A stretch of 64,000 nucleotides of DNA, taken from IMG/VR virus record IMGVR_UViG_3300045806_000063, positions 1 to 64,000 of that record; one strand, written 5' to 3'. Both the position numbers and the translations under genes were made by a program. This DNA comes from a virus. A model generated the notes under the pieces. It ran no database searches, was not told the DNA's origin, and was given only the letters and a program-made list of their open reading frames with translations. Shown here piece after piece: positions 4,731 through 36,914 of the stretch (its first letter is position 1; each line of letters opens with the position of its first letter).

Positions 4731-4813
4731 TATTCAAATAATTTTCAAACATACATTATCTAGATGAGATTACTAAATAGTGATTCTTAAGTAGTCATTC
4801 TTTTAATGACAAA
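4731..4813 (+). promoter_or_regulatory. conserved promoter + double-hairpin leader, copy 1
   Basis: TTCAAATAATTTTCA..ATC-TAGATGAGATTACTAAAT..CTTAAGT.GTCATTCTTTTAAT. Confidence 0.8.
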
Positions 4814-4830
4814 TTTGTTAGGAGACGGAA

Positions 4831-5259
4831 ATGAACACAGATCGTAGCACGTCCGCAGTTGTTGGTCAGATCGTCAGTCAGATTGATCTGACCTCATCGG
4901 TGTCAATCTCAGAGCAAGTCGATGCTCTGATTACGGCACAAAGTCCGGCCAAGCTAATGGGTGGTATGATCATGGAGAGCATCAAACCATCTCCGTCATG
5001 GGCAGGAAAGAATGTTCTCTGCCAGGGAGACTGGCCTCTAACAGCCACTCACGCCGTGAGTTGTGTGAGCTACAACCGCGCATTCGGTAATAGGGAATAT
5101 GGCCCGGATGTAACGTTCTTTAACTCTGAGGAGGAGTTAGAGGAATGGATGGTTGAGACTGCTCAATGGCGGGCAGACGGAGACTGGGAAGTCTCCGTGC
5201 ACGCAACGGTCTACGAGTGGGATCTCGGCCCCCGCCCACTGGGGACGCGCTACCCGTAG
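4831..5259 (+). CDS. hypothetical protein, cassette 1
   Basis: AGGAG RBS; follows repeat copy 1; visibly more GC-rich than flanks. Confidence 0.7.
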   Translation: MNTDRSTSAVVGQIVSQIDLTSSVSISEQVDALITAQSPAKLMGGMIMESIKPSPSWAGKNVLCQGDWPLTATHAVSCVSYNRAFGNREYGPDVTFFNSEEELEEWMVETAQWRADGDWEVSVHATVYEWDLGPRPLGTRYP

Positions 5260-5336
5260 TCTATAAAAAATAACAGCTTCCACAGTGTTATTTTTTTTTT
5301 ACATTTTATGTTTATTTAATTTGTTAAGGAAATAAC

Positions 5337-5864
5337 ATGCCGTCCAAATCATTAAAGCAGCATAAGTATATGGAGTTTGTAGCCTATGGCAAGGAGAATG
5401 CCACAGAGGCAGAGAAAGCTATGGCTAAAGAGTTCCTAGATGCCGATAAAGCCGCAGGAAGATACCAACTAGGTTATGCGGGGATTGTGGCTATGATAGT
5501 AGAGGAGGATAGTAAGATAGTCCTCCTATGGCATAATAAGGCCGACTGCTGGACATTCCCTACTGGTAAGATTGAGGATGATGAAGCTGACTATGAAGCA
5601 GTAGAACGTGAAGGTAAGGAAGAGCTAGGCATAGAAGTTAAAGGTACTAAAATGCTAGGGTCTATAACTATTGAAGTTAAACCCCATGACAACCTTACGT
5701 TTCATGTATATAAAGTTACCAGTTATAATGAAGAAGTAAAGAATAAAGAGCCTCATAAACACGCAAGGCTCAAAAAGGTGACTAAGGTAGAGTTGAAAGC
5801 TATGGCTAAACAAGACACTGCTTCAGAACTAATTAAACAAGCAATAGAAAAAGGATACCTGTAA
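5337..5864 (+). CDS. Nudix hydrolase with N-terminal MPSKS..KQH..M module
   Basis: Nudix box GKIEDDEADYEAVEREGKEELGI. Confidence 0.85.
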   Translation: MPSKSLKQHKYMEFVAYGKENATEAEKAMAKEFLDADKAAGRYQLGYAGIVAMIVEEDSKIVLLWHNKADCWTFPTGKIEDDEADYEAVEREGKEELGIEVKGTKMLGSITIEVKPHDNLTFHVYKVTSYNEEVKNKEPHKHARLKKVTKVELKAMAKQDTASELIKQAIEKGYL

Positions 5865-7114
5865 TGTTAGAGTTTAGCATAGGTAATGAAAGTATTGATC
5901 ATCAGATAAATTCTAAATTAGGACCACGACTTGAAGAAGCGATTAGAGAACTTAAAACATCATCTGTTGTATCTGAAACAAAGTTAAATGAATCCCCATT
6001 AGCCAAGGTCATTAAAGAAGAACTCGGGCTCATTGTGGAATTTGTTGCAGATGAGGGATTAGGTGCATGGGTACTAGTTCCAGATCTAAACCATAATAAT
6101 GTTTTAATGAATAAATTTCGTAAGCAATACTTCAAAGATGCAGATAGTTTAGCATTGTTAGAAACAGCAGACTTCCTAGAAGGAACAATAGATCTTAGAA
6201 CTGGTAAAGTGAGTGGTGATTTCGCTAAGGTTAAATCGACTATCGGCCTTGGAAATGAGGTAATAGGTAAAGCTTCAATTTTTACAGTACCTGAAATAAC
6301 TGGTATCCTGTTACATGAAATTGGACATATCGATACATACCTTGAATTACTTGGTAGATTCATAAAAACCAGTAATCTTCTCGATGATGCAGTCAGCAGA
6401 CTGCTTAAAGCCACAACAAAAGAACAGCGTACTGTGATTTTATCTGAAGTAGAAAAAGCTACCAAAACTACCATAGATAAGAAAGATGAGATAGCAGAAA
6501 AAGCAAGGACTGCAGAAGCTTACGCTGTAGTTATTTTAAGTCAAGCTATCAAACAGTCAAAACAAGAACTGGATGTGAATATCTATGATGCCAGAACATG
6601 GGAGCAGTTAGCTGATCAGTTTGCTGCAAGGTATGGTTATGCGGTTCCGTTAGTTACTGGATTAGATAAAATACATAGACTCTACGGGAGTCATCAATAC
6701 CGCTCACCAGGTTGGAATATTTTTTGTGAAATATTTAAACTATTAGGTTTCATTCTTATGGGTCTGTCTAGTTACGGACTTCAGTGGATAGTAATACTAC
6801 TGGCAATAGGTAATCCTATAGCCGAAATGTATGACCCTCCTAAAGATAGATTCAGAAAGATTAAGCAACAGCTTAATGATGCCCTTAAAGATAAGGATTT
6901 ACCAGCTGCTGTGAGACAAAAGCACTTAGATGATTTTAAAATCATCACTGAAGTTATGGATAAAATGTATGATAACGAAACTGTTTATAATTTCATATGG
7001 AGCACCTTATTCCCTTGGGGTAGAAAACAGGCTAAGTCAGTTAGAGAGTTTCAGGAAACTGAAGCACTCTTGAATAATGATCTTTTTGCAGCAGCAGCTT
7101 TAGTAACCGTATAA
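5864..7114 (+). CDS. virion protein with zincin HExxH motif
   Basis: LLHEIGH and EQLAD; N-terminal GNES resembles prohead-protease site; phiKZ-like synteny. Confidence 0.65.
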   Translation: MLEFSIGNESIDHQINSKLGPRLEEAIRELKTSSVVSETKLNESPLAKVIKEELGLIVEFVADEGLGAWVLVPDLNHNNVLMNKFRKQYFKDADSLALLETADFLEGTIDLRTGKVSGDFAKVKSTIGLGNEVIGKASIFTVPEITGILLHEIGHIDTYLELLGRFIKTSNLLDDAVSRLLKATTKEQRTVILSEVEKATKTTIDKKDEIAEKARTAEAYAVVILSQAIKQSKQELDVNIYDARTWEQLADQFAARYGYAVPLVTGLDKIHRLYGSHQYRSPGWNIFCEIFKLLGFILMGLSSYGLQWIVILLAIGNPIAEMYDPPKDRFRKIKQQLNDALKDKDLPAAVRQKHLDDFKIITEVMDKMYDNETVYNFIWSTLFPWGRKQAKSVREFQETEALLNNDLFAAAALVTV

Positions 7115-7182
7115 GTTAGTTGCGCATGAGGTATATTTTATTTAATTGACTTAATCAATCATTTGAGTGAAAGAAAAAACAA

Positions 7183-7259
7183 GGGCCTTTAGCTCAGCTG
7201 GTTAGAGCTTCCGACTCATAATCGGCAGGTCGTAGGTTCAAGTCCTACAAGGCCCACCA
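7183..7259 (+). tRNA. tRNA with CAT anticodon, likely Ile2 (lysidine) rather than Met
   Basis: Cloverleaf GGGCCTT/AAGGCCC, loop CT-CAT-AA, GTTCAAG T-loop, encoded CCA; C4:G69 and C5:G68 match TilS determinants. Confidence 0.85.
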
Positions 7260-7267
7260 GTATACAA

Positions 7268-7352
7268 CTGGATGTGATGAAATAGGTAGACATTCGAGAC
7301 TTAAAATCTCGTGGCGCAAGCCGTGCTGGTTCGATTCCAGTCATCCAGACCA
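7268..7352 (+). tRNA. tRNA-Leu(TAA)
   Basis: CTGGATG/CATCCAG acceptor, CGAGA-CTTAAAA-TCTCG anticodon arm, long variable arm, CCA. Confidence 0.9.
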
Positions 7353-7361
7353 ATTAGAAGA

Positions 7362-7398
7362 TTACACCCAGAGCACCTTTAAGGTGCTCTGGGTGTAA
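7362..7398. repeat. palindrome, 18-bp arms, 1-nt spacer
   Basis: ...cacctt t aaggtg... Confidence 0.9.
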
Positions 7399-7428
7399 CT
7401 CTACCGTCAGTTCATTTTAATTAATAGA

Positions 7429-7508
7429 TTCAAATAATTTTCAAACATACATTATCTAGATGAGATTACTAAATGGTTTTCTTAAGTGGTCATTCTTTTA
7501 ATGACAAA
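7429..7508 (+). promoter_or_regulatory. conserved promoter + leader, copy 2
   Basis: Near-identical to copy 1. Confidence 0.8.
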
Positions 7509-7527
7509 GTTGATAGAGGATAAGATT

Positions 7528-8256
7528 ATGAGAAACAATAAAATGAAAAAATTAATAAAGTATATGACATCTGCCATGGCAGATGAGTCGGTTAAGGCTG
7601 AAGCAGTGGAAGCTGCTAAAGCCGTGGAAACCATGGAAGACCTAACTGGCCAGGCTGTAGCTGGTCTTTTGCTCATCTTGAAGGAGGATGTACAAAAGAT
7701 TAAAGTTAAGGTATCCGTGAGGGAGGTGGTACGGATAGCTATGAAGATCGCGGCTATCCAGCCCACTTGGACGCCTGACCTCCAACAGAAAGTAGGAGAG
7801 GTCTTGAGTGGAGTATTTGATGATTCCCTGGCAGAGCGGTTAGGGAGTTATGCGAACGGAGGTACTAATGTACAAGCAACCCTAATGGGTCTGTACGATA
7901 GAATTCTGAAAGACCTGGAAGGAACTATCCCTGATAAGCTCCACGATGGACTGACTGAAGTTAAACCATATCTCATCCCAGCGCTAGTTGCTGCGGATGA
8001 GATAATCACAGAGAACCCAAAAGTGTTAGCAATTCTTTTGGAGAAGTTACAGGCTCCAAAGGTTAAGCCTAAATCTAAACAGTCGGGACTATTCTCACGC
8101 TCCACCCGAACATCCACCTCAGTAGACATCTTCGGTGATGATGAGGATGGTGAGGATGAGCACACTGTAACTAACAAAGGGAGAGGGAAAAACCCCTATG
8201 AGGGTTCAATAAATGGGGCCGGTATCGTATGGGATTTTTACGGTAGACCGGATTAA
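7528..8256 (+). CDS. hypothetical protein with acidic C-terminus, cassette 2
   Basis: ATG after GAGGA RBS in repeat copy 2; track start 7486 lies inside the repeat. Confidence 0.7.
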   Translation: MRNNKMKKLIKYMTSAMADESVKAEAVEAAKAVETMEDLTGQAVAGLLLILKEDVQKIKVKVSVREVVRIAMKIAAIQPTWTPDLQQKVGEVLSGVFDDSLAERLGSYANGGTNVQATLMGLYDRILKDLEGTIPDKLHDGLTEVKPYLIPALVAADEIITENPKVLAILLEKLQAPKVKPKSKQSGLFSRSTRTSTSVDIFGDDEDGEDEHTVTNKGRGKNPYEGSINGAGIVWDFYGRPD

Positions 8257-8268
8257 GTTGAAATGAAA

Positions 8269-8304
8269 TAGATAGCCACAGTGATAAGTCACTGTGGCTA
8301 TCTA
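8269..8304. repeat. palindrome, 16-bp arms, TAAG spacer
   Basis: tagatagccacagtga taag tcac... Confidence 0.9.
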
Positions 8305-8374
8305 CCTTTACTTTCTATTTCTTATTTTTTTTGTTTTGAATCTTATGTTTAAATTCATCTTAGGGGATAGGGTA

Positions 8375-10627
8375 ATGTTGCGACTAAAATTAAGAGTAAG
8401 TGATAGGCCAGAAATACATCATTCGGGGTTTATCAATGAGTTTCTCGTTGGGAAAAATACAAAAGAGAGAGTAGAGATTTTAGGTATTGTGATAGGTCTT
8501 GGTTTGCCATTAGGATCACACAATCCGGTTGTAAAAGATTATAACGCAGTATGTCAGGAATTTGATATCAAATTCCGTATTGAAATTATTAATTTACTGA
8601 ACAAACTAAAAGAAGGAAATCTAATATTTCCAAATGAGCCAATTTTAAATATAGCCAGATCCGTCTATGCGTGTAGACTTTCTATGGACAAATATAGTTT
8701 AGCTCAGATATTTGTTACTTTTACCCATCTTACTAAAGAGGGTTTACTTGGTACATTTATAAATTATAAAAATACGGAACATGTTACTGATGATTTATTG
8801 TTAAATCGGCTGCATGTTCTAAACCTCACTGTATGGGATCTCATTGACCGTGAAGTTGATATCTTCGATACAAATACTTTTCTAAAGGAACTAGATAAAA
8901 GTATTGATCGTATCAGTGCAGAACCTAGTGTTAGCCCGGACTTTAGTGTTGATGTCCCATTACCACTTTGGAGGAAAGCTATTACAACGGCTCGTGATTC
9001 TTTAGTTAATTTAAAGAATGGACAATTCGATTATATTGATGAGGACTACGCATTGCTACTGGTAATATTCCTGGTAGATGCTTTAAGTAGACAGAATCAG
9101 TCTGATACCATCGCCGTTATTGCATATAGTAAAGTCTTTGTAGAAGCGGTATCTAAATTGCAACTGTATGATCATTATGACAATGCTGAAATACAAATAG
9201 GCTGTGAAGACCTGAATGTGGCTGGGGATGAGGAACTGGTTTTTTTCTCTGATGGAGTCGAGGGCATCCTAGAAGAAAGAAAACTCGACAACCTAGCAAG
9301 AACTATGGTTAACACCATCAAAGAGTTTAAGTCAGACAGTAATGAAATGAAAGAATTACTTGCTAATGAAGAGTTTGTGGGCGTGGAGGATTATAAAGAA
9401 GTAGTGCAGAAAATATTAGCATTACTAATGACCCATATAAATAAGTTAGTGCCAGCATTTGCCATACTGATATTAGGGATAATCGCATATCTTTTAAATA
9501 GAGAAAAGGCCGAACCAATTGCATCGAAAGCCCAGAAAGCATACGATGATAAAGTAGCTACTATTGAAAAGAAATATAGTCACCCGCCTAGTATGGCTTC
9601 GTTAGGCATAAATACTACAGAATCCGCTAAGTCATTATCTGCTATGATTGCAATGTATGGCACTGACCTAGACGTTTATATTTTGTCTGAGAATCCTAAA
9701 TATAAAGTCAGTGCACTTCAAGATACACTGATGGCACATGTAGAAGCTTCACATGAAATCATAAAAGATTTAAATCTAATGGTAGATGAGTATAAGTCAA
9801 TCTGTCAGCAGGTTATGTCTCCTGACTCTATCACTCCGATTATATCAAAAATTGAAGAACTCTACCTAAAGGATGATTTTCATCTACTATCCTATACTCT
9901 ATCGCCACTGTATGATTTTGTGAAGAAGGCAGGTGGACAGACTCCGGCTTCAAGCCCAGCATATGAAAGTGTAACTAAAGTAGTTAATTTTTCATCTGGC
10001 CCAGGTGATGCATTCTGGAGAGGACGAGCGCACTATAACAATGATAAACCAGCTCTTAGCATTGGAGCAACCCTACGGCCATATAGTGGCTTGAATGGCA
10101 AAGGTACACAAAGACATGGGATACTTGAAGATATTAAACGAATGGGTTCTTTTAATATCAGTAAACTTGATAAAGAAAAAGCATCAGTAGAATCTAACAA
10201 GACCGCAGTAGAGCGTATCGTTCGGGATTTGCAAGGTATCTCAACTGCTCTACACCGAACTATCCCTGAAGAAGTACGAAACATGACGGTATGGCCATTG
10301 CCGCCACACGATGCACGAATTAAAGCGAATGAATATTTGTGGAAAAATATTGCTAAGTCTAGAGGAATCTTGAGAGCACATGGTTTGGGTAATTTACCCA
10401 TATTTGATACTGCTGATATTGTCAGTGAACTAATAACTGGGAATACAATGGTATCAAAACTACACGCTATAACGGCAGTAAGTCACTCTGTATTAGATCT
10501 TTGGGAAGTGTTTAAAAGAATAACACAAATTAAAAAGACATATGAAAGACATTACAATATTCTCAGATCTGAACAGGAAGCATATCAGAAAGCATTAGAC
10601 AAATACTACGCCGACGGAGGAGCATAA
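8375..10627 (+). CDS. large probable head/internal virion protein
   Basis: About 750 aa; G-x-E sites (GCED, GVEG, GVED); track GTG at 8294 lies inside a palindrome so ATG 8375 preferred. Confidence 0.55.
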   Translation: MLRLKLRVSDRPEIHHSGFINEFLVGKNTKERVEILGIVIGLGLPLGSHNPVVKDYNAVCQEFDIKFRIEIINLLNKLKEGNLIFPNEPILNIARSVYACRLSMDKYSLAQIFVTFTHLTKEGLLGTFINYKNTEHVTDDLLLNRLHVLNLTVWDLIDREVDIFDTNTFLKELDKSIDRISAEPSVSPDFSVDVPLPLWRKAITTARDSLVNLKNGQFDYIDEDYALLLVIFLVDALSRQNQSDTIAVIAYSKVFVEAVSKLQLYDHYDNAEIQIGCEDLNVAGDEELVFFSDGVEGILEERKLDNLARTMVNTIKEFKSDSNEMKELLANEEFVGVEDYKEVVQKILALLMTHINKLVPAFAILILGIIAYLLNREKAEPIASKAQKAYDDKVATIEKKYSHPPSMASLGINTTESAKSLSAMIAMYGTDLDVYILSENPKYKVSALQDTLMAHVEASHEIIKDLNLMVDEYKSICQQVMSPDSITPIISKIEELYLKDDFHLLSYTLSPLYDFVKKAGGQTPASSPAYESVTKVVNFSSGPGDAFWRGRAHYNNDKPALSIGATLRPYSGLNGKGTQRHGILEDIKRMGSFNISKLDKEKASVESNKTAVERIVRDLQGISTALHRTIPEEVRNMTVWPLPPHDARIKANEYLWKNIAKSRGILRAHGLGNLPIFDTADIVSELITGNTMVSKLHAITAVSHSVLDLWEVFKRITQIKKTYERHYNILRSEQEAYQKALDKYYADGGA

Positions 10628-10628
10628 C

Positions 10629-10976
10629 ATGCGATCAATTCTTGAAGAAGATGAATTAGTACCATGCTTTGGTGTGGAAAGTTTACAGAATCCTAACTTA
10701 AATCATTTAGAGGTTTTAAGTAAATCTAACTCACTCAATTCTAGTTTCTTTGAAGATATTGAAACTATAAAAGATATCAGTCATTTGATTGGTAATGAAG
10801 GCATGTGCATGGTTTTAGCTGAGAAGTTAAATGAAGTTATACCTGGCTTCATTACCGAAGTCAATCCAGTTAACAGTTATACAAGAAAACCTACGGTACT
10901 AAACAAACAGTTAGCTTTAGATAAGATAGATGAGTTTTTAAAAACCTCATTTAAACAAGAAAGATATCAGTTTTAA
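10629..10976 (+). CDS. small probable head protein
   Basis: FGVESL processing-like motif. Confidence 0.55.
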   Translation: MRSILEEDELVPCFGVESLQNPNLNHLEVLSKSNSLNSSFFEDIETIKDISHLIGNEGMCMVLAEKLNEVIPGFITEVNPVNSYTRKPTVLNKQLALDKIDEFLKTSFKQERYQF

Positions 10977-11002
10977 TTAGAGTCTGACTACTACAACTAT
11001 TG

Positions 11003-11039
11003 ATATATCCCTCTCACCCTATGGGTGAGAGGGATATAT
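11003..11039. repeat. palindrome, 17-bp arms, TAT spacer
   Basis: Between convergent genes. Confidence 0.9.
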
Positions 11040-11043
11040 ACTT

Positions 11044-13968: not shown

Positions 13969-13981
13969 AGCTTACTCCTTA

Positions 13982-19556: not shown

Positions 19557-19592
19557 TGAGATACCGGAGCACCTAGGTGCTCCGGTATCTCA
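19557..19592. repeat. perfect 36-nt palindrome
   Basis: tgagataccggagcacct|aggt... Confidence 0.9.
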
Positions 19593-19602: not shown

Positions 19603-19685
19603 TATTCAAATAATTTTCAAACATATATCATCTAGATGAGATTACTAAATAGTGATTCTTAAGTAGTCATTCTTTTAATAGCAAA
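19603..19685 (+). promoter_or_regulatory. conserved promoter + leader, copy 3
   Basis: Near-identical to copy 1. Confidence 0.8.
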
Positions 19686-19702
19686 TTAGATTGGAGAATG
19701 AA

Positions 19703-20155
19703 ATGACTACGAATAATAAAATTATAAACGTCAATGTAGCAATGTTGGCGATAGTAAATGCACAGAAAGAGGTACTGTTATTAAATCACATTAAAGGAAA
19801 TCTTTGGGGATTTCCTGGAGGTAAAGTGGATCCCGGGGATACATATGCAGATACAGTCATTAGGGAAACACATGAAGAACTAGGGGTAGTCATCGGTAGT
19901 CGAAACATTTGTAAGATTTGTGATGTTGTATGTCAGTCCGCATATGACGGCGGTGGTACGTATAACACCCGCATATATGAGTTGCTTACTCCAAATAAGT
20001 ATAAACTATCTATTGGCGAACCGCATAAACATAATGAGATGAAATATTTCTCATTGTCAGACATTGGTGAGTTAGAAAAGAAAGGTCTATTACGTGTTAG
20101 TGCAAAAACAGTAATTGCGGCAGTCGTTAAGGCAGAGCCGTTGTTAATTAAGTAG
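19703..20155 (+). CDS. Nudix hydrolase, cassette 3
   Basis: GGKVDPGDTYADTVIRETHEELGV; GGAG RBS in repeat copy 3. Confidence 0.85.
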   Translation: MTTNNKIINVNVAMLAIVNAQKEVLLLNHIKGNLWGFPGGKVDPGDTYADTVIRETHEELGVVIGSRNICKICDVVCQSAYDGGGTYNTRIYELLTPNKYKLSIGEPHKHNEMKYFSLSDIGELEKKGLLRVSAKTVIAAVVKAEPLLIK

Positions 20156-20177: not shown

Positions 20178-20207
20178 TCCAGGAATGATCACTTGATCAT
20201 TCCTGGA
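20178..20207. repeat. palindrome, 14-bp arms, CT spacer, T-tract follows
   Basis: tccaggaatgatca ct tgatc... Confidence 0.9.
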
Positions 20208-20260
20208 TCTATTTTTTTTTTAATCAAAATCATATAGCTCACTAAAGGGGAGAATCTATA

Positions 20261-26329: not shown

Positions 26330-26369
26330 GCCTATCCCTCCATTCGACTAGTCGAATGGAGGGATAGGC
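26330..26369. repeat. perfect 40-nt palindrome
   Basis: gcctatccctccattcgact|agtc... Confidence 0.9.
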
Positions 26370-26371
26370 AT

Positions 26372-26454
26372 TATTCAAATAATTTTCATTTATATATCAT
26401 CTAGATGAGATTACTAAATAGTGATTCTTAAGTAGTCATTCTTTTAATAGCAAA
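26372..26454 (+). promoter_or_regulatory. conserved promoter + leader, copy 4
   Basis: Near-identical to copy 3. Confidence 0.8.
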
Positions 26455-26473
26455 TTAGATTGGAGATAAGATT

Positions 26474-26671
26474 ATGAGTACAGTAGCTAAAGGGCATGAA
26501 TCACCATTATCTGGCTTTGCGATATGCCAGAAGTATGGTATTTCGGCGAAACGCTTCGCCGAAATAATCACTGAACCGAAATTCCATTTCCCTAAGTCTG
26601 TGGCACAGGGCCCATACGGCGGGTTATGGGACCAACAAGAAGTTGATGAATGGATCCATATGAAATGGTAA
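26474..26671 (+). CDS. AlpA/excisionase-like winged-HTH protein, cassette 4
   Basis: ICQKYGIS...I....FPK.......LWDQQEVDEWI pattern; GGAG RBS. Confidence 0.7.
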   Translation: MSTVAKGHESPLSGFAICQKYGISAKRFAEIITEPKFHFPKSVAQGPYGGLWDQQEVDEWIHMKW

Positions 26672-26677
26672 GTCACC

Positions 26678-26709
26678 GGAGCAGTATGCGATTAATCGCA
26701 TACTGCTCC
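26678..26709. repeat. perfect 32-nt palindrome
   Basis: ggagcagtatgcgatt|aatc... Confidence 0.9.
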
Positions 26710-26728
26710 AACCTCTTTATTTTTTTTT

Positions 26729-28249: not shown

Positions 28250-28306
28250 TGTATATCCTTTTATTTATTGCAATAGATATGTACATTACTTTAATATTCA
28301 CTAATC

Positions 28307-28801: not shown

Positions 28802-31109
28802 TAAATCTCAATCAAGCATGGGTCGTCAAGCAAAAGAGGCCCTGAAAGCAATTCTCTTGACCCAGACCTCAACCTTTGGTAAGGATGATGTACACGCATA
28901 TCTGGGCCTGGAGTCACTTACCAGCAAAACCAACGAAAAATTATTGATTGACTCTACCAGTCATATCAGTTCATTGCTGAGATCCTCTCCTGAAATTAAT
29001 GCTTATGTGGATCTGATAGCTAAAGGTTGCAAAGGCGTTTATGTCGGTAAAGGTGAAGCTGACACTGCTTTTGGAATGGAAAAGTTACAACAAGACTGGA
29101 AAACTGACACATATGACCGATTAGCAATTTCGGTAATGGCTCAGATGAACCCAGCAAAAACCGTTATGAACTACAACAACATGTGTCCTACTGACACATC
29201 TGCATTAGGCGGCAATTACCATATCCTGAATACTGGCGCTGGTACTTTAGCTTCCTTGTCAAACCCCAAATATTCTCAAGGTTGGGGCTTGGAGTCTTTT
29301 GACCCAGCTACTCATATGGACTTCATTGCGGCTTCCGCATTGATCAACGTAACTGCTACTGTTCCAGGCGCATTTGAAGAAGTATTCTTCCAAGGCATCA
29401 GCTTGCCACCAGGGCAGTCTGGTTTTGACGTAATGGTACAAGTGCCAAAAATCTTGGTTACACGTTTCAGAAACGTGTCATCTGGCGCTGCATGGGATGA
29501 AGAAAAGATTAGCATCGTTCAAGCGGCTTATGATCCATCAATCTTAAGCTCTAACAGTATCAATATCATCCCTATCGTTATTGATGATACCAATCCTCCA
29601 CAACTGGTACCTCAATCAGTTGTTCCTGCCTGGACTGTGAATGTATTGGGTACTGACGTTGAAACCAGACCTATCTTGTTTGGCCCTGAAGTAGGCTTGA
29701 TAGAACTATCCACATTTGGTGCTATTCTGAATAATGGCCAAATGGATGCTACAGATGCACTGTATACTAATGTTGGTGTTCAGGATGTATTTTTCCAAAT
29801 TGACATCAGTGTGGGTACTGCTGGCGTAGGCGATGGCGTCGTAACAACTTCCGCTGTGCTGAAGAATAACGTCACCAGCATAGTTGGTACCTTGCTGCAA
29901 CAAAAGCAAATCGGTCGTGCACAATCATTGCAAACAGTGACCAAAGTTCCTTTATTTGTCACTGAAAACTCCATTCCAGTATCAGGTGCTACCCAAGCTG
30001 AACTGTCAGGCGTTATACAAGCGGCCTTAGGTTTGTCAGCCAGCACTCCTTTTAATCTGAGAGGTGTTTTCACACTGACATCAGAAGCTGATACTGAGAT
30101 TGGCTCAATGATGTGTGGCCAGCTCAACCCTTCCCTCCAAGCGGTTACCGGTACCACTACCTCAGGTATGGAAACTCAGCCAGTGTACAATCTGGCAGCT
30201 CTGAATGGCGGCGCTGGTGCTAGCAAAATTGTCACCACCATTACACCGATTGGCTGGTATCCAAATGCTCGTCGTACCAACTCCAACTTACGTGTCAATG
30301 GTACCATTATTGATGCTAACAACATCGTTAATTACCGGTTACCAATTAACGTATTCCCTCCATTCACTGCACGTACTCCAATTAACCAAACTGATCAAAT
30401 CACATTTGAAACATTGGGTAATGTTACCGCACTTTGGGTATCAGGTCAATGCGTTGATAAATTGATCGAAATGGAAAACTGGCTGGAAACAGTATCTGGT
30501 ACTCCAATGGGTGTAGGTACCATGACTAACCAATGTCCTATCATGGGTGGTGAGTATGTCATTCCAACTCTGCGTACTGATTTGGTTAACATCTATGACC
30601 TGGTTGATAACTGGCAGTCTAAAGATCTGTTGGCTAACATCAGAGCACAATTCCAAGTAACACTGATGTATGCCTCTGCCCAGTTGTACATGGACTCAGG
30701 TTACAGCTCAGCTCTGCAGATGTTACTGCAGGACTTGGACGCATATGAAACTATCGTGGTTACCGATCCATTGATTGCTCAGTTCATGATGGAAGCTGGC
30801 GATATTCGTACTATGGGTGACAACCGTAAATACGTATTCTGCAAAACGAATAATAACAACATTCGTGGCAAAATCTATTACTCTTTCCGTCTGGTTGGCA
30901 GTAGCGATCTGGTACATCCAATGTCTTTCGGTTGCCGTCTCCAGTCACCGAACATCACTTATGAAGTAGTGCCAATGAACCGTGGCGGCGCTAACATCCG
31001 TGAGATTCAATCGATGCCACGTGTGGTACCGTTTGTTAACTTGCCTGTTTTGGGCGTAATCAACGTTGAAGGTTTGTCACAGTTCGCGACTACTGCAGCA
31101 CAACATTAA
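28785..31109 (+). CDS. major capsid protein (phiKZ gp120-like)
   Basis: 774 aa; LGLES, FGME and WGLESF propeptide sites; AAGGA RBS; synteny. Confidence 0.85.
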   Translation: MSILGNKSQSSMGRQAKEALKAILLTQTSTFGKDDVHAYLGLESLTSKTNEKLLIDSTSHISSLLRSSPEINAYVDLIAKGCKGVYVGKGEADTAFGMEKLQQDWKTDTYDRLAISVMAQMNPAKTVMNYNNMCPTDTSALGGNYHILNTGAGTLASLSNPKYSQGWGLESFDPATHMDFIAASALINVTATVPGAFEEVFFQGISLPPGQSGFDVMVQVPKILVTRFRNVSSGAAWDEEKISIVQAAYDPSILSSNSINIIPIVIDDTNPPQLVPQSVVPAWTVNVLGTDVETRPILFGPEVGLIELSTFGAILNNGQMDATDALYTNVGVQDVFFQIDISVGTAGVGDGVVTTSAVLKNNVTSIVGTLLQQKQIGRAQSLQTVTKVPLFVTENSIPVSGATQAELSGVIQAALGLSASTPFNLRGVFTLTSEADTEIGSMMCGQLNPSLQAVTGTTTSGMETQPVYNLAALNGGAGASKIVTTITPIGWYPNARRTNSNLRVNGTIIDANNIVNYRLPINVFPPFTARTPINQTDQITFETLGNVTALWVSGQCVDKLIEMENWLETVSGTPMGVGTMTNQCPIMGGEYVIPTLRTDLVNIYDLVDNWQSKDLLANIRAQFQVTLMYASAQLYMDSGYSSALQMLLQDLDAYETIVVTDPLIAQFMMEAGDIRTMGDNRKYVFCKTNNNNIRGKIYYSFRLVGSSDLVHPMSFGCRLQSPNITYEVVPMNRGGANIREIQSMPRVVPFVNLPVLGVINVEGLSQFATTAAQH

Positions 31110-31129
31110 TCGTTAGTGTTTAATTAGAT

Positions 31130-31167
31130 GTCATCCACCCTCACACCTAGGTGTGAGGGTGGATGAC
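31130..31167. repeat. perfect 38-nt palindrome after capsid gene
   Basis: gtcatccaccctcacacct|aggt... Confidence 0.9.
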
Positions 31168-31178
31168 TCTATTACTGC

Positions 31179-31260
31179 TATTCAAATAATTTTCAAACAT
31201 ACATTATCTAGATGAGATTACTAAATGGTTTTCTTAAGTAGTCATTCTTTTAATGACAAA
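31179..31260 (+). promoter_or_regulatory. conserved promoter + leader, copy 5
   Basis: Near-identical to copy 2 through to the ATG. Confidence 0.8.
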
Positions 31261-31279
31261 GTTGATAGAGGATAAGATT

Positions 31280-31891
31280 ATGAACACATACAAAAATATC
31301 TGGGCAATGATTCAGGTGTACACACTCGTACTGCTCGGAGCAGTACGTGCAGTATGGCTGAAAAAGCACAATAAACCAGTAAGACTTGACCAGCTGTTAA
31401 AGCTGGCGTTGCTAAAGGCCATTACACATGACCTCACTACCTTCTGGAAAAGCCCAGAAGGTAGTGAGGTGAATGTTCCAGCCATAGAGCGTTCAGCGGA
31501 TAGCTGGAATGCCAGCTGGGTACAGGCCCTACAAGCGGCAGGCTCCGCAGAGAATAGTCTGGTGGGGGCTAGCATTAAGTTAGCCGACTATCTTGCCGAC
31601 TACTCTACCCATAAGTTGGTCACTTATGGGGAGCTGCAGTACAATCTTAACAATGCAGTGCGGAGGTGTACGCTGGCTAATAAGGCCGAGTTTGATGCTA
31701 TGGGAATGGATATGAGAGTGGTACGACTACCCCACGTCTTATTCCTGGCGTATGTTGAACACCTCAAACAGTCCAGAGATTTCTTCTGGGCCCATGGGGT
31801 GTTGAAGCAAGTAAGTTCTGCGGCGAAGTCCGTGGAGTATCAGCTGTACTTATCTCCTGAACAGAGAGGTACGACTGTAGTAGGTTTATAA
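31280..31891 (+). CDS. hypothetical protein, cassette 5
   Basis: ATG after GAGGA in repeat copy 5; visibly GC-rich. Confidence 0.7.
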   Translation: MNTYKNIWAMIQVYTLVLLGAVRAVWLKKHNKPVRLDQLLKLALLKAITHDLTTFWKSPEGSEVNVPAIERSADSWNASWVQALQAAGSAENSLVGASIKLADYLADYSTHKLVTYGELQYNLNNAVRRCTLANKAEFDAMGMDMRVVRLPHVLFLAYVEHLKQSRDFFWAHGVLKQVSSAAKSVEYQLYLSPEQRGTTVVGL

Positions 31892-31908
31892 ACCTATTAC
31901 CATATGGC

Positions 31909-31934
31909 AGATAGAGACATTAATGTCTCTATCT
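31909..31934. repeat. perfect 26-nt palindrome, T-tract follows
   Basis: agatagagacatt|aatg... Confidence 0.9.
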
Positions 31935-31957
31935 ATTTTTTTTTTCATCTATCTTTG

Positions 31958-31976
31958 AAACATATATTATCTATAG
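31958..31976 (+). promoter_or_regulatory. early-type promoter core
   Basis: AAACATATATTATCTATAG. Confidence 0.55.
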
Positions 31977-32000
31977 GCATTACAGCATAAAAGGAAAAAT

Positions 32001-33068
32001 ATGTTAACTTCTAAAATATCAAAAGACAATAAAGGTATAAAGAGAGAGTATAAAGGTTTGCAGGTAACGACTACTTTTATTAATTACTCTAAGTACCATT
32101 TGGTGATATGTTTTAGGGATGGATGTTATTCAGTTTTATCGCCATCCGATAAAGACCCTTATCAGGATATTTTAATGGTAGGGCACCAAAAATCAAATCT
32201 TAAAGATGGTATTTTAACCGTAGATGGAGTTGAAGATGAAAGACTTATGCACATTAAAGAAAAGCTAAAAGTTAATCATCGGCATGTTGAATGGGAGGAG
32301 TCAATAGATATCAGTTCGTTAGCGGATACAAGGGGGGGAAAGTATATTTATGATTTAGATATCTACATTGGTATTGTGGATAATTTAGATTTTGAACATT
32401 TTCATCCGTTTTCCTTTCAGCATATAACGAACAGAGAATTGAATCCTGGGGTAGAATTTGACCCAAAGACACAAATAAGCTTTACTATAAAAATTGTAGA
32501 TAATGAGTTACCTGGTGTAGATTACTATACAGTAATTAATGATGACATAGTGCATTTAAAAAGCGAACTATCATCGTTTCGCAATAGTGGTTTATACGTT
32601 ATTGGGGTACCAGAGTTAGATACTGTTAAAACAAATAAAATGAGGAAGACAGATAAATACAGTATACCGCAAGCTTTAGAAGGTGTAAGTAAGTTTAAGT
32701 TATTCAAATCAATTGCCGATGCTACTATTTACCTTAATGAAAGAGGTACTTTAGCCTCGGTTAGTAAGCTTGAACTATCAAGGCAGGAGACAAAGAACCT
32801 TGAGATGAAGAAAGCATTGGAACAGTTACAGCATGAGAATGCTTTAATAAATGCAAACAGGTCTAAGACCGAGAATGAACTCAAGTCATATCAGGAGGAA
32901 TATGAGAGAGACTTACAAAATAGGAAGCAGGACTTTGAATTACGAATACAGAAACTAAAAGAGGAAGCAGCTATTGAAACTCAAGTAAATAAGTCTAATG
33001 TTGAGACACTAAAAGTAATAGGAGGAGGTTTAGCTTTGGGCGTATTACTCTTGAAAATATTTTTATAA
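32001..33068 (+). CDS. hypothetical protein with coiled coil and C-terminal TM (phiKZ gp122-like)
   Basis: AAGGA RBS; C-terminal hydrophobic tail. Confidence 0.6.
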   Translation: MLTSKISKDNKGIKREYKGLQVTTTFINYSKYHLVICFRDGCYSVLSPSDKDPYQDILMVGHQKSNLKDGILTVDGVEDERLMHIKEKLKVNHRHVEWEESIDISSLADTRGGKYIYDLDIYIGIVDNLDFEHFHPFSFQHITNRELNPGVEFDPKTQISFTIKIVDNELPGVDYYTVINDDIVHLKSELSSFRNSGLYVIGVPELDTVKTNKMRKTDKYSIPQALEGVSKFKLFKSIADATIYLNERGTLASVSKLELSRQETKNLEMKKALEQLQHENALINANRSKTENELKSYQEEYERDLQNRKQDFELRIQKLKEEAAIETQVNKSNVETLKVIGGGLALGVLLLKIFL

Positions 33069-33120
33069 TATACAGCCACTATTAATGATGTGATATAACC
33101 TATGTCAGTTTGGAGGCTAG

Positions 33121-34737
33121 ATGTCAAAAGTAGATTTAAACATGCAAAAATGGCTTAATGCCAGAACCCCAAAATTAAATAGAGGTATAGTGGAAGGGTT
33201 ATCACATTTACACTCCCCTAATATCGAAAAATTAATTGAGAGATTATGGGTATGTTCTAGTAAAGGATATCCTCCAGGAATCACGTATGAGGGAGGAAGG
33301 AGATGTACGGCTAAGGAAAGCTTTCTTGAAGTAACAAAATCAAATGCCCCGAATAGAGCATTCGAAATGTCGACATCTGACATGTATTTAATGCGGTATG
33401 ATTTCGCATTTCATGGAGTCCCTCTTAGTCCTAGACATATATTCCTGCCATTCATTAGACCAGGTGGTCTTTTCACTGTCAGAGATACTCAGTATATGGT
33501 AACTCCTGTGATTTCAGGCAGGATCTTTAATATTGAACATGGGGAGATTTATTTACCATCTACTCGATTAAGGATGGGGTTCTGGCAAAAGGAGGTATCG
33601 TGTATTCTTAATGATAGAGAGATCAATAGATCCTCTGTTGGTGGGTATTTGTACTATATACATCCTGATACAAAACGGTCTAAACTAAACCCCTTACTGG
33701 TTCATTATCTTTTAGCTAAGTTCGGTATCGTAGATACTCTTAAGTTTTATGGAGTAAATGCGAAATTAGGCTATCAGGAATTGGATGAATTAGATAAGTC
33801 TGAGTGGTTCGTGTTTAGAAGTAAACAGATGGCAATAAAAAATAGATCAGCTAAGGAGTATCCTCCTACTGAGCTTAGGATTGCTATTTCTAAAGACAGT
33901 TATTATGTCTTGATCTGTGATATCATTGCTAGTATTTTCTATATACTGGATAATGTACTTTGTAATACCTCGGACATTGCTGAATTAGTAAATCCTAATT
34001 ACTGGTTACGGCTACTATACTTCTTCATATTCAAAGAGACTTGTAGTGAAAATAAAATGGTCGAGAAAATGACTAAACATATGGAGTCAATGGAATCGAC
34101 CATTGATGAAATTACAATTGATGGCTTCAAAAGAGCTAATCTAAATTGTACAACAGTGTTTGAGTTATTTAGATTCTTAACAATTAATTTCAATGACCTA
34201 TGCATCCATTACGACTATGGGACTATGTATGATCTTGAGATTAGAACTATTGAACCATTGACTTTCGGTATACGGAAAGACATTACAAATGCGATGTATC
34301 GCTTGCAGAAAATTCCACCTAATAATTTAACTGCAGCTAAAATTAATTTTGTATTATCCCATTCTATTGACCGAGATACAATCCTGTCAGTTAAAGGACA
34401 TGGAGAGCTAGAACCAAGCAGCATTGCATCCACCTGTATGCTCTATGGACCAACTGCTGACATAATAACCTACAGTAAAGCCACTTCATCTGGAGGGGAT
34501 TCACTTACTGATTTAAATGATCCTAACCTATTAATGCATTATAGTCTACTAGAGGTAAGCAGTTATAATGCCTGCACTGGTAAGGAGTTGTCTGGGAGAG
34601 GACTATTAAATCCTCATCAGTCATTTGTACATGGTAATGTTACCAGTCCATCTAAGAAACATGCAGAAAAGTTAGCATTGTTAAATGATCAATTAACTCA
34701 ACACAAAAGAAAACATGAGGCAAAAGAATGCTTATAG
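33121..34737 (+). CDS. non-virion RNA polymerase beta subunit fragment (phiKZ gp123-like)
   Basis: FLPF..PGGLFTVR..QY...P region and GRGLLNP; synteny after capsid gene. Confidence 0.75.
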   Translation: MSKVDLNMQKWLNARTPKLNRGIVEGLSHLHSPNIEKLIERLWVCSSKGYPPGITYEGGRRCTAKESFLEVTKSNAPNRAFEMSTSDMYLMRYDFAFHGVPLSPRHIFLPFIRPGGLFTVRDTQYMVTPVISGRIFNIEHGEIYLPSTRLRMGFWQKEVSCILNDREINRSSVGGYLYYIHPDTKRSKLNPLLVHYLLAKFGIVDTLKFYGVNAKLGYQELDELDKSEWFVFRSKQMAIKNRSAKEYPPTELRIAISKDSYYVLICDIIASIFYILDNVLCNTSDIAELVNPNYWLRLLYFFIFKETCSENKMVEKMTKHMESMESTIDEITIDGFKRANLNCTTVFELFRFLTINFNDLCIHYDYGTMYDLEIRTIEPLTFGIRKDITNAMYRLQKIPPNNLTAAKINFVLSHSIDRDTILSVKGHGELEPSSIASTCMLYGPTADIITYSKATSSGGDSLTDLNDPNLLMHYSLLEVSSYNACTGKELSGRGLLNPHQSFVHGNVTSPSKKHAEKLALLNDQLTQHKRKHEAKECL

Positions 34738-36149
34738 GAGACACTCGTGGTAGAGGTAGTATGAGAGGTACTGTTGAACAAGAAACAGACATTGAACAAG
34801 AGATTTTTGATAATGTCTGCGAAGACTTTAAAGTATCTTCAATGGAGAGAAGACAATTTCAATTACTAGCAGATAAGGAGTATCAAAAACTATTCGATTT
34901 AATATCTCCGTATATTAATGAGAGTAAATGGATAGATCTTGTTAGGATTATAATGCTCAATCTATTAGGGGAAACAATACCGGCCCTTTATGATAAAGAA
35001 TCTAATGACTATGAGCCAGACATCTATACAGCAATGGCAGATCTTGAGAAACTTGTCGATAAGATATCCAACCCAGAACCAGCCAGAAGAGATCTTCGCC
35101 CATCCAACACAGATAGAGGAAGATCATCTCCGTCTACTTTTAGAGGCGGTAGCAGAAATTCGGGCAGAAGAACACAGTCTGCATCAATTAACAATACCCG
35201 GAGAAATAACGACATGTTTGACCCAGACGACCATAGAACACAAGGAGAAACAATTCGGCAGAATACTCCTCCGTTCAAAGCAGGAAAGAATGTAACTGAA
35301 GTAGTAGTTGAAAAACTGATACCAGTAACAGTGCCTGGAATGGTGGATCGTACTGCTGCATTTGATCCTACCATCAGAACTGGGTTAAATGGTGGTGAAT
35401 CCATTGAGTGTTATCAACTGTGTGATATTGGAAGTAACTTTGGCGATTATCCAGTTCTGTATAAGCATTGGGTGGAAGAAAGAATGGCCTATGGTCTTCT
35501 TTCGGTAGATGAGCCAAGTGTGACAGCTATTGAGAACATTTTTAATGAACTTGGAGAAGTAGCTACGATTGATAGACTAGTAGCTTTAATAAAGGAATTA
35601 CAAAGTCATGGAAAGTTGGAGACGGTTTATTGGTTATCCAACCGAATATCTGCACTAGTGTTAGATTATCTTGACACTAAATTTGAAATGCGTGATCAAG
35701 AGTCGTTTCCTCTACTCACTCGTCCAGACGACTGTATAGAGTACTTAAAGGATGCAAATATTCTGGACCAGGTTTCAAAGCTAGTTACTGTGTTTATAAA
35801 TAAGTTATTCTCGAACTGGTATTTCTTCAGATGCGAAACACATGAAGAAGACACAGTTAGTGCTGAGGATAAACTGTCGATTGACACAGTGGTGGTGTTA
35901 AGATATACGGTACCGATTCTAATTCTGCCGTATATCACAAGCTATCAAAGAATATCGAAGACGTTCAAGATACTAACCTCATCAGTAGAGGAAAATGTAG
36001 CAAATTTCTTAGTTCAGAAAGCTTTTGTTAAGATACCCCCTACTGAACATGAGTTATACATTTGTGATAAATCCTATAACCTGTACAAGACTACACGGTG
36101 GATTGATGAGAAGGTCGAAAATATGGAACATGCTATTGTAAAAGCTTAA
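34728..36149 (+). CDS. hypothetical protein with Arg/Ser-rich linker
   Basis: 473-aa ORF. Confidence 0.6.
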   Translation: MLIGDTRGRGSMRGTVEQETDIEQEIFDNVCEDFKVSSMERRQFQLLADKEYQKLFDLISPYINESKWIDLVRIIMLNLLGETIPALYDKESNDYEPDIYTAMADLEKLVDKISNPEPARRDLRPSNTDRGRSSPSTFRGGSRNSGRRTQSASINNTRRNNDMFDPDDHRTQGETIRQNTPPFKAGKNVTEVVVEKLIPVTVPGMVDRTAAFDPTIRTGLNGGESIECYQLCDIGSNFGDYPVLYKHWVEERMAYGLLSVDEPSVTAIENIFNELGEVATIDRLVALIKELQSHGKLETVYWLSNRISALVLDYLDTKFEMRDQESFPLLTRPDDCIEYLKDANILDQVSKLVTVFINKLFSNWYFFRCETHEEDTVSAEDKLSIDTVVVLRYTVPILILPYITSYQRISKTFKILTSSVEENVANFLVQKAFVKIPPTEHELYICDKSYNLYKTTRWIDEKVENMEHAIVKA

Positions 36150-36170
36150 GGAGGTAGCTTAGTTAAGGTA

Positions 36171-36205
36171 AGTGATGGATTCGGCATAGTGCCGAATCCA
36201 TCACT
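36171..36205. repeat. palindrome, 16-bp arms, TAG spacer
   Basis: agtgatggattcggca tag tgcc... Confidence 0.9.
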
Positions 36206-36213
36206 ATTACCGT

Positions 36214-36295
36214 TATTCAAATAATTTTCATTTATATATCATCTAGATGAGATTACTAAATAGTTTTCTTAAGTAGTCATTCTTTTAATGACAAA
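36214..36295 (+). promoter_or_regulatory. conserved promoter + leader, copy 6
   Basis: Near-identical to the other copies. Confidence 0.8.
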
Positions 36296-36314
36296 ATTGA
36301 TAGAGGATAGGATT

Positions 36315-36860
36315 ATGAACATAGCTGAATTGAGAGATGTCGTTCGTGCCGTTGCAATTGCAGAGACGCAGGCTGATGCCCCCCTGACCTTATACTCCAA
36401 AAATGGGAGTATGGGAGAAGATGACCAAACGGTAACCGTAGATGTATACGGAAAACCGGGTCCAGAAGGAGAAGACAATCCAGCGATCTTCAGCGGAAAA
36501 CCGGACTGCGTAGGGTATGACGCGCGTAGCAATTACGCGCATACTGAGCCATATATAGTGGCCCCCACAGGAAGTATCCATAACTGGGTACAGGATAACT
36601 ATCCAACAGCATTCTGGTACTTGGTGAATTTCAGTACATGGAAACGTTGGGATAGGAATCCTCAGGAACGATGCACTACAGGTGCTTCATTTCGGGTTCA
36701 AGCCGGTATGGCTTCAATCTTTACACTCATTTCGGTGGAGGAGTTCATAGCTACGAATGGCGACACCACCACAGTCAAAATCACCGCAGGTATTGACTGT
36801 GACTGCAGCATCACAGCTGAGACCGTGTATGCAGATAACAACACTTCTAAGACCGATTAA
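36315..36860 (+). CDS. hypothetical protein, cassette 6
   Basis: ATG after GAGGA in repeat copy 6; visibly GC-rich. Confidence 0.7.
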   Translation: MNIAELRDVVRAVAIAETQADAPLTLYSKNGSMGEDDQTVTVDVYGKPGPEGEDNPAIFSGKPDCVGYDARSNYAHTEPYIVAPTGSIHNWVQDNYPTAFWYLVNFSTWKRWDRNPQERCTTGASFRVQAGMASIFTLISVEEFIATNGDTTTVKITAGIDCDCSITAETVYADNNTSKTD

Positions 36861-36874
36861 CATCTAAATAACTC

Positions 36875-36914
36875 TCCAGTACCAGACTACCCATATGGGT
36901 AGTCTGGTACTGGA
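36875..36914. repeat. perfect 40-nt palindrome
   Basis: tccagtaccagactacccat|atgg... Confidence 0.9.

Follow-up and report, generated by a model that had tools for sequence, protein, structure and literature searches.

phiKZ-like phages transcribe their genomes with polymerases of their own, and in some of them a protein nucleus shields the DNA; to our knowledge, the acquisition, expression, and exchange of accessory genes in these phages have been little studied. The subject here is a conserved promoter-leader element that stands before single, unrelated genes in the first 64 kb (the window) of the IMG/VR record IMGVR_UViG_3300045806_000063, a metagenome assembly of 181,108 bp from an uncultivated phage. 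The closest known analogue, already named in an earlier note on this DNA and upheld by the present computational analysis, is the promoter-early stem-loop (PeSL) cassette of T4-like phages (Arbiol et al. 2010, PMC2839356; Comeau et al. 2014, PMC4122927). PeSLs are conserved intergenic composites of about 100 bp made of an early promoter, stem-loops, a Shine-Dalgarno sequence, and a start codon; they occur in many copies per genome, preferentially before orphan or variable genes, insulate transcription, and were proposed as homology patches for insertion, deletion, and swapping (PMC2839356, PMC4122927). Early promoters of phages related to phiKZ (AR9, phiKZ, and phiR1-37; PMC5312081, PMC7598289, PMC8244752) consist of a conserved AT-rich element of about 10–13 nt with the start 6 nt downstream, found at tens of gene-oriented sites, and the early 5' untranslated regions (5'UTRs) of AR9 contain an unexplained motif. 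In archaeal viruses, a highly similar regulatory sequence lies upstream of unrelated small early genes, a small winged-helix protein being among their products, and this shared sequence was used to predict anti-defence genes (Bhoobalan-Chitty et al. 2024, PMC11065993). Lambdoid morons are single genes with their own promoter and terminator, placed between core genes and often deviant in composition.

The earlier note had placed an element of about 83 bp at 4731, 7429, 19603, 26372, 31179, and 36214, always on the + strand. Exact copies of an invariant 21-nt core at 4758, 7454, 19630, 26399, 31206, and 36241, all on the + strand, agreed with these positions, and the core occurred zero times in 100 dinucleotide-preserving shuffles. 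Alignment gave a longer conserved unit of 100–105 nt, running from a TTCAAA-type box to the ATG with weaker conservation into codons 2–4; similarity was at background (about 27% identity) within 60 nt upstream of the unit and from codon 6 on. The search of the whole genome that the note had proposed revealed 11 copies of the core, every one on the + strand and six of them in the window. With an nhmmer profile, the 11 copies scored 85–108 bits and the next-best match 20 bits, so the leader family (family A) was sharply bounded; the mean identity among the copies was 84%. As had been claimed, each window copy preceded a ribosome-binding site and exactly one unrelated open reading frame (ORF). 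Genome-wide, one ORF of 65–378 aa followed each copy, except in cassette 11, outside the window, which carried two. The repeat is thus, like a PeSL, an intergenic composite of about 100 bp that ends in a Shine-Dalgarno sequence and a start codon and is present in numerous copies in a single genome. None of the other IMG/VR records and metagenome contigs searched contained the exact 21-mer, blastn of the element against INPHARED phages gave no match, and a scan of IMG/VR with the 15-nt promoter core gave single chance matches only. Two diverged or partial family-A leaders were also seen in this genome: a diverged one at 138830–138917, which keeps the inverted repeat of hairpin 2 (see below) and whose site is orthologous to that of a leader copy at 6540 in a relative (G2), and one at 139858–139907 consisting of the 3' half only.

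The 774-aa capsid protein of the phage was a member of Pfam PhiKZ_MCP with about 28% identity to Vibrio jumbo phage capsids, and the genome encoded four split RNA polymerase (RNAP) beta/beta' pieces; on these grounds the phage is assigned as a divergent phiKZ-like phage with its own multisubunit RNAPs. The genome ends carried a terminal repeat of 93 bp. A 591-aa candidate for chimallin, the phage-nucleus shell protein, adjoined cassette 11 and had no Pfam or PHROG match, so nucleus formation is not claimed. Two related partial genomes, G1 (70 kb) and G2 (154.5 kb), were located in IMG/VR by an alignment-based capsid scan; two peptide-pattern searches with the capsid had found none. Their capsid proteins were 56–57% identical to that of this phage. 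Both were collinear with the window, with core-gene protein identities of 24–57%, and they were about 80% identical to each other overall.

The first third of the repeat holds the motif ACATATATTAT or a near variant, followed by 6 nt and a predicted G start. This core motif was found at about 27 intergenic sites of the genome, all gene-oriented, and recurred in G1 and G2 in forward orientation only; G occupied the seventh position after it at 27/27 intergenic sites here and in 22/24 matches in G1 and G2. The experimentally mapped early consensus of AR9 is AAATATATATTAT-(6N)-G (PMC5312081), and in the virion-RNAP promoters of phiKZ-related phages transcription begins 6 nt after an extended AT-rich element (PMC5312081, PMC7598289). 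Consensus comparison showed that the motif of the repeat agreed with the AR9 early consensus and with the 6-nt start-site rule (PMC5312081). The operons of the 540-aa and 701-aa RNAP subunits also had the motif upstream (promoters at 152621 and 166991); the large subunits of 1214 aa and 1320 aa lacked it. The former are presumed to belong to the non-virion RNAP and the latter to the virion RNAP; this distribution served as an internal check, because the non-virion RNAP must be made early. Sigma-70-like sites were not enriched (58 found vs 70 expected). Because of the recurrence of the motif with a fixed G, the match to the AR9/phiKZ consensus, the RNAP-operon check, and the lack of sigma-70 enrichment, the element is identified as a putative early (virion RNAP) promoter followed by a 5'UTR of 65–69 nt, with the starts in the window predicted as listed in Table 1. 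The claim that it is a promoter plus leader was therefore sustained, while a sigma-70-like reading of the promoter gave way to the virion-RNAP early class of phiKZ/AR9-type phages: the strong sigma-70-like early promoter of PeSLs was missing from the element, and the features of a virion-RNAP promoter were present, namely the AT-rich element of about 10–13 nt with the start 6 nt downstream and split RNAP sets with the motif before the presumed non-virion set.

Two side observations concern transcription in this genome. The 1214-aa protein (genome 101361–105005, L172) combined an RNAP beta'-type N-terminal half (phrog_2986) with GNAT and inorganic pyrophosphatase domains. A AATCATATAG-type motif followed a terminator T-run at the same core gene here and in G2 (window 20208–20245; L012 1255–1295) and is a candidate middle or late promoter.

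In the 5'UTR, two predicted hairpins were followed by a GGAG/GAGG Shine-Dalgarno sequence and the ATG, so that the hairpins of the repeat lay downstream of the predicted start site. Hairpin 1 started at +1 of the predicted transcript. Hairpin 2 was an inverted repeat of the type GCTATT-N5-7-AATAGC with two compensatory pairs, its stem being broken in four hybrid copies. Its stem sequence was kept in 16/16 copies of the three genomes, with a variable loop and with both-sided changes in this genome; the half-site spacing was 5 nt vs 7 nt between genomes, and in this genome the inverted repeat was essentially restricted to the leaders. A strongly structured, riboswitch-like leader was ruled out by weak folding z-scores (−2.4 to +0.3), and a relaxed-threshold Rfam search gave nothing on the element, tRNAs alone being matched. 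An upstream ORF in the leader was also rejected: the ATG of the core opens frames of 8–13 codons, but indels put these out of register from copy to copy, and transcription is predicted to begin at the G of this very triplet. In this genome, G1, and G2, roughly every second predicted early transcript opened with a hairpin whose first paired base was +1 or +2 and whose sequence varied from gene to gene (for example at genome 80191, 135987, and 146594, and in L137 and L152); a 5'-terminal hairpin may be a trait common to the early mRNAs of the clade that protects the 5' end or allows its recognition.

Homologous promoter-leader copies were found in both relatives, three in G2 and two in G1, including one at site 2, the place of cassette 2 in the window. 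A profile built from these five copies alone recovered 8/11 copies of this genome at nearly full length (E 2e-8 to 1e-4). The leaders of this genome were 84% identical to one another and the five from the relatives 75%; between the two sets the identity was 58%. Copy 2 shared 53–54% identity with its positional orthologues vs 83% with its paralogues, and the G2 copy at 94774 shared 67% with its G1 positional orthologue vs 89% with a G2 paralogue. In the alignment of the 11 copies, all four combinations of variant blocks were present. Since paralogues were closer than positional orthologues and all four block combinations occurred, the copies appear to exchange sequence within the genome, which indicates that they evolve in concert. 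The family is accordingly placed as older than this genome and ancient in the phage clade; the view of the leader as simply a recently spread mobile element was not borne out.

Traces of insertion were seen at two places. In G2, compared with G1, a leader and the start codon of the resident gene were separated by an insertion of 498 nt that carried two small ORFs and fitted exactly between them. Cassette 11 was flanked exactly by a direct repeat of 66–69 nt (genome 149357–149425 and 150186–150254; copies 84% identical), which fits the single-crossover integration of a circular intermediate. The hairpin loop inside this direct repeat was inverted between the two repeat copies. A 36-nt stretch of DNA polymerase coding sequence (window 3426–3461, gene on the − strand) was copied exactly, in sense orientation, at genome 149736–149771, where the copy lies in the gap separating the ORFs of cassette 11, and may be a recombination scar. 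As a general mechanism, a transposon or miniature inverted-repeat transposable element was rejected, as no terminal inverted repeats were present and 10/11 cassettes had no flanking direct repeats.

The cargo genes (numbered c1 to c11 after their cassettes, with c11b in addition) had a G+C content (GC) of 43–55% vs 38.0 ± 3.3% for the genome, and GC at third codon positions reached 0.63 vs 0.31. Eight of the 10 most GC-rich real ORFs were cargo (Mann-Whitney p = 1.4e-7). The earlier note had taken most cargo as more GC-rich than the core genes, and this GC outlier status supported a compositionally foreign origin for 5/6 window cargos, for 10/11 first cargo ORFs genome-wide, and for c11b; it did not hold for the Nudix gene c3. 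Nearly all genes of foreign composition in this genome, which were presumably acquired recently, stand behind the module. Pfam and PHROG searches gave no family match for 8/12 cargo ORFs, in line with the preference of PeSLs for orphan or variable genes.

Among the two functions that had been assigned from sequence, the Nudix identity of c3 was confirmed (Pfam E 1.7e-15); the support for the AlpA-like call on c4 was convergent but weak, and c4 is probably a winged-helix excisionase/AlpA-type DNA binder. By family match, c10 was a GT2 glycosyltransferase. The product of c11b matched NCBIfam CAS_Csx20 with E 2.6e-7 and 31 bits, below the cut-off of 70. The c7 gene (genome 95002–95775; L007 1578–2351) belonged to a widespread uncharacterised family of about 60 clusters with many metagenome homologues of about 55% identity. 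One homologue had a Cas_VVA1548 gene immediately downstream, and two others carried a Cas_VVA1548 domain themselves. The model of c7, a confident one (predicted local distance difference test score 88), showed two beta-rich domains with a helical linker between them and matched no solved fold (Foldseek E ≥ 0.056; best VIA Z 4.5). Because the Csx20 match was sub-threshold and the Cas_VVA1548-linked c7 family had no solved fold, an anti-defence role is a hint and not a result; the idea that the cargo comprises anti-defence genes was thus hinted at for c7 and c11b only, and no cargo was validated as an anti-defence protein. Family searches on the cargo found no homing endonuclease and no integrase-like gene, the rest of the genome not having been searched for an integrase.

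Two further observations concern the first cassette and its surroundings. Remote homologues of c1 aligned from residue ~35 on, and the public gene call begins at residue 43; the N-terminal ~35 residues (window 4831–4950 region) may be a lineage-specific extension that arose by joining to the start codon of the leader. A second Nudix-domain gene (window 5337–5864, 175 aa, Pfam E 5e-14) lay directly after cassette 1 and had no homologue in G1 or G2, so that this phage has two Nudix genes within 15 kb.

The earlier note had asked whether the orthologous sites of relatives would be empty or differently filled, and both states were found. Sites 1, 3, and 6 were empty in G1 and G2, with no promoter, leader, or ORF there, and sites 2, 4, and 5 held different genes. 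At site 2, an unrelated 222-aa ORF stood behind a homologous leader; c2 was considered as an orthologue of this gene and rejected, since BLASTP gave no significant similarity. Site 4 held other, unrelated ORFs; the ORF found at site 5, behind the capsid gene, was likewise unrelated, encoded 188 aa, and had an early promoter to itself. A tblastn search of the 12 cargo ORFs against the partial genomes G1 and G2 gave 0/12 matches. The one close relative seen was a 2.4-kb metagenome contig (sample ERZ1426827), which encoded c5 at 94% identity with the same downstream core gene and began 37 nt before the ATG of c5; this start suggests an assembly break at the repeat.

The cassettes sat singly between collinear core genes, and the hyperplastic clustering typical of PeSLs was absent. 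The picture of a terminator-bounded unit with unrelated cargo behind each copy was borne out, while a placement inside late operons was not, as the neighbours of the cassettes include DNA polymerase, tRNAs, and the replicative helicase. Long palindromes lay 3–29 nt upstream of five window copies and of 9/11 copies genome-wide, outside the conserved repeat, and a palindrome or a hairpin with a T-run stood at the 3' end of every cargo. Their positions were therefore as the earlier note had described them, but they were not parts of the cassettes: long perfect palindromes are taken as the ordinary intergenic terminators of this genome, occurring at dozens of intergenic sites (148 palindromes listed genome-wide), and those flanking the cassettes are likewise regarded as putative generic terminators. 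Integron-like cassettes were not supported, the downstream palindromes being generic terminators and the family searches on the cargo having shown no integrase-like gene. Coordinates are given in Table 1.

Table 1. Positions of the promoter-leader copies, cargo genes, and flanking terminators in the window.
Feature	Position	Strand	Remarks
Promoter-leader copy 1	4731..4830	+	start G4766 predicted; 65-nt 5'UTR, two hairpins, GGAG Shine-Dalgarno
Cargo c1	4831..5259	+	142 aa, GC 54%, no family match; remote homologues cover residues ~35–140 only
Cassette 1 end	5269..5302	+	weak A/T-rich hairpin and T10 run
Palindromic terminator	7362..7398	.	29 nt upstream of copy 2; after tRNA-Met and tRNA-Leu (7183–7352)
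Promoter-leader copy 2	7427..7527	+	start G7462 predicted; homologous leader with different cargo at same site in relatives
Cargo c2	7528..8256	+	242 aa, GC 46%, no family match; unrelated to the 222-aa ORF of G2 at this site
Palindromic terminator after c2	8269..8304	.	
CCTAGG-centred palindrome	19557..19592	.	11 nt upstream of copy 3; without own T-run
Promoter-leader copy 3	19603..19702	+	start G19638 predicted
Cargo c3	19703..20155	+	Nudix hydrolase, 150 aa, GC 38% (no outlier); site empty in G1 and G2
Terminator after c3	20178..20221	+	palindrome and T10
Perfect palindrome, 40 nt	26330..26369	.	3 nt upstream of copy 4
Promoter-leader copy 4	26372..26473	+	start G26407 predicted
Cargo c4	26474..26671	+	65 aa, GC 45%, probable winged-helix excisionase/AlpA-like DNA binder
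Palindromic terminator after c4	26678..26709	.	common to convergent helicase gene
CCTAGG-centred palindrome	31130..31167	.	follows major capsid gene; 12 nt upstream of copy 5
Promoter-leader copy 5	31179..31279	+	start G31214 predicted
Cargo c5	31280..31891	+	203 aa, GC 48.5%, orphan; unrelated 188-aa ORF here in relatives
Terminator after c5	31909..31972	+	palindrome and T-run, then generic early promoter restarting transcription for next core gene
Palindrome	36171..36205	.	9 nt upstream of copy 6
Promoter-leader copy 6	36214..36314	+	start G36249 predicted
Cargo c6	36315..36860	+	181 aa, GC 48%, orphan; site empty in G1 and G2
Perfect palindrome, 40 nt, closing cassette 6	36875..36914	.	common to convergent minus-strand genes

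A generic early promoter followed the terminator of cassettes 5, 8, 9, and 11, and in three of these cases it belonged to a second repeated promoter-leader family. This family B module consisted of a palindromic terminator, a T-run, a generic early promoter, and a leader of about 45 nt. Four copies were found: at window 51–127 (identical to genome 180982–181108 plus 1–127) and at genome 105584–105651, 118623–118685, and 150252–150414. Three of the copies were directly behind the family-A cassettes 8, 9, and 11, and one pair was 100% identical over 127 nt. The tRNAs directly upstream of cassette 2 were tRNA-Met (CAT) and tRNA-Leu (TAA); tRNA-Met was the sole nucleotide match to known phages within the first 20 kb.

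Set beside the described systems, the element shares with PeSLs the composite build, the many copies before orphan or variable genes, and the transcriptional insulation, which is predicted here. It differs in its promoter, which is of the virion-RNAP type of phiKZ/AR9-like phages whereas PeSLs have sigma-70 promoters, in the single placement of the cassettes between core genes instead of clustering in hyperplastic regions, in the long, nearly invariant transcribed leader included in the repeat, and in the strong GC shift of the cargo. Recombination between PeSL copies yields indels, replacements, and minicircles, while the exchange proposed here is deduced from indirect signs in the sequence, namely the concerted evolution, the combinations of variant blocks, and the direct repeats around cassette 11. 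Published early promoters of phiKZ-related phages are short consensus elements; the subset described here adds a leader of about 70 nt that is 84% identical, appears to evolve in concert, and is tied to foreign cargo. With the archaeal viruses the phage has in common a highly similar regulatory sequence upstream of unrelated small, predicted early genes and, in c4, a probable small winged-helix protein among the products. Compared with the archaeal viruses, the host of the element is a bacterial phage with its own RNAP and not a virus with TATA/BRE promoters, its genes are dispersed and not at the genome termini, and none of its cargo is validated as anti-defence. Lambdoid morons resemble the cassettes as single genes with a promoter and terminator of their own between core genes, but they have no common regulatory sequence, whereas one leader family serves all cassettes here.

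We consider it probable that the element is a PeSL-like early expression module, shuffled by recombination and built on a virion-RNAP promoter. Each copy would be an early transcription unit of a phiKZ-like phage, its first ~35 nt being recognised by the RNAP packaged in the virion. The transcript would have a 5'UTR of 65–69 nt with a 5'-terminal hairpin, a second hairpin or inverted repeat, a strong Shine-Dalgarno sequence, and the ATG, and ordinary palindromic terminators on both sides would insulate the unit from neighbouring genes. The leaders would form an old, clade-wide family whose copies recombine or undergo gene conversion with one another and so stay alike inside each genome. With about 100 nt of homology recurring at many sites, the module is probably a portable recombination anchor, as PeSLs are in T4-like phages; new genes that arrive behind the leader would gain immediate-early expression, and cargo could be exchanged or change its place. 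Here the module would have expanded to 11 copies, and some of the cargo would be candidate counter-defence genes.

Several points weigh against this explanation. Since the relatives with DNA are distant (24–57% core protein identity), the empty and filled sites may reflect ordinary long-term gene turnover, and the one close relative keeps the same cargo at the same site. The Nudix gene c3 has the GC of the genome average and is not compositionally foreign, and direct repeats flank only one of the 11 cassettes. The mobility and the recombination mechanism of the cassettes are deduced from the sequence, and neither minicircles nor a recombinase can be shown. The predicted leader structure is weak, with hairpin 2 broken in the four hybrid copies. 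The start site and the early timing are predicted from consensus similarity; family-A promoters differ by 1–3 bases from the consensus motif of the genome, and, according to the AR9 data, deviations of this kind can abolish promoter activity.

The same observations can be read with stationary leaders, which would mark fixed early-gene slots where the coding cargo alone turns over by illegitimate recombination, and where the likeness among leaders comes from gene conversion and from selection for an optimal promoter and UTR. An ORF driven by an early promoter is found at sites 2 and 5 in all three genomes, with a leader at site 2 that is homologous in all three; c5 is retained in place in the close relative, 10/11 cassettes have no flanking repeats, and the insertion that distinguishes G2 from G1 came downstream of a resident leader and not together with it. 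However, neither relative has a promoter, leader, or ORF at sites 1, 3, and 6, the 11 copies here stand against 2–3 in the partial relatives, and the leader of cassette 11 lies inside the insert that is flanked by direct repeats; we hold stationary leaders to be unlikely. The inverted repeat of hairpin 2 could also be an operator, bound by a phage regulator that silences all of these genes once the early phase is over; one candidate is c4, acting on DNA or mRNA in the manner of an anti-CRISPR-associated (Aca) repressor. The conservation of the stem in all 16 copies of the three genomes with a variable loop and both-sided changes here, the near confinement of the repeat to leaders, and the resemblance of c4 to a small winged-helix DNA binder are in keeping with such a regulon, which has a precedent in archaeal viruses, where an Aca8 repressor goes with a regulatory sequence that early anti-defence genes have in common (PMC11065993). 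Yet the partial genomes of the relatives keep the repeat and have no c4 homologue, the stem is mismatched in four copies, the half-site spacing differs between genomes, and binding by c4 or another regulator is conjecture. An operator, which would be compatible with a PeSL-like module, is accordingly given a rather small chance.

Transcription by the host RNAP from sigma-70 promoters, as in ordinary morons, would account for a TTCAAA box upstream of a TATTAT/CATTAT-like hexamer. The spacing of these boxes (about 15 nt) is unfitting, however, and a consensus scan called no sigma-70-type promoters at the predicted starts; the same motif with its fixed G precedes the presumed non-virion RNAP-subunit genes and agrees with the AR9/phiKZ virion-RNAP consensus, and phages of the phiKZ type do not depend on the host RNAP (PMC7598289), which makes host-driven promoters highly improbable. 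Since this is a metagenome assembly and the related short contig breaks 37 nt before the start of c5, the repeat evidently disturbs assemblies, and an assembler might have joined foreign GC-rich fragments at the repeated sequence. Such an artefact is scarcely credible, as each cassette has core genes on either side whose order agrees with that in two independent relatives, the sequence at the 3' junctions is unique, and the c5 cassette with its downstream core gene was recovered independently. Beyond the PeSL-like module preferred here, a bolder possibility, which we think doubtful, is that the leader is no passive promoter copy but an active control and gene-capture element of the whole clade: its conserved 5'-terminal hairpin and inverted repeat would be recognised by a phage factor (an Aca-like winged-helix protein such as c4, or a factor that handles RNA in the early infection compartment) that co-regulates a fast-turnover counter-defence arsenal, and the junction of leader and ATG would be the preferred entry point of foreign genes. 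If this were true, finding the leader would suffice to pick out the counter-defence repertoire of these viruses.

As a PeSL-like module, the element would mean that the principle of PeSLs, a repeated promoter-leader serving both as expression signal and as recombination anchor, has an analogue on a virion-RNAP promoter. This analogue appears to evolve in concert across its clade, and in one genome hardly any gene of foreign composition lacks it. It offers a handle, a kind of 'guilt by regulatory sequence', on the immediate-early genes of uncultivated giant phages, which are mostly orphans. The immediate-early genes found in this way may include counter-defence genes, such as candidates against type III CRISPR signalling.

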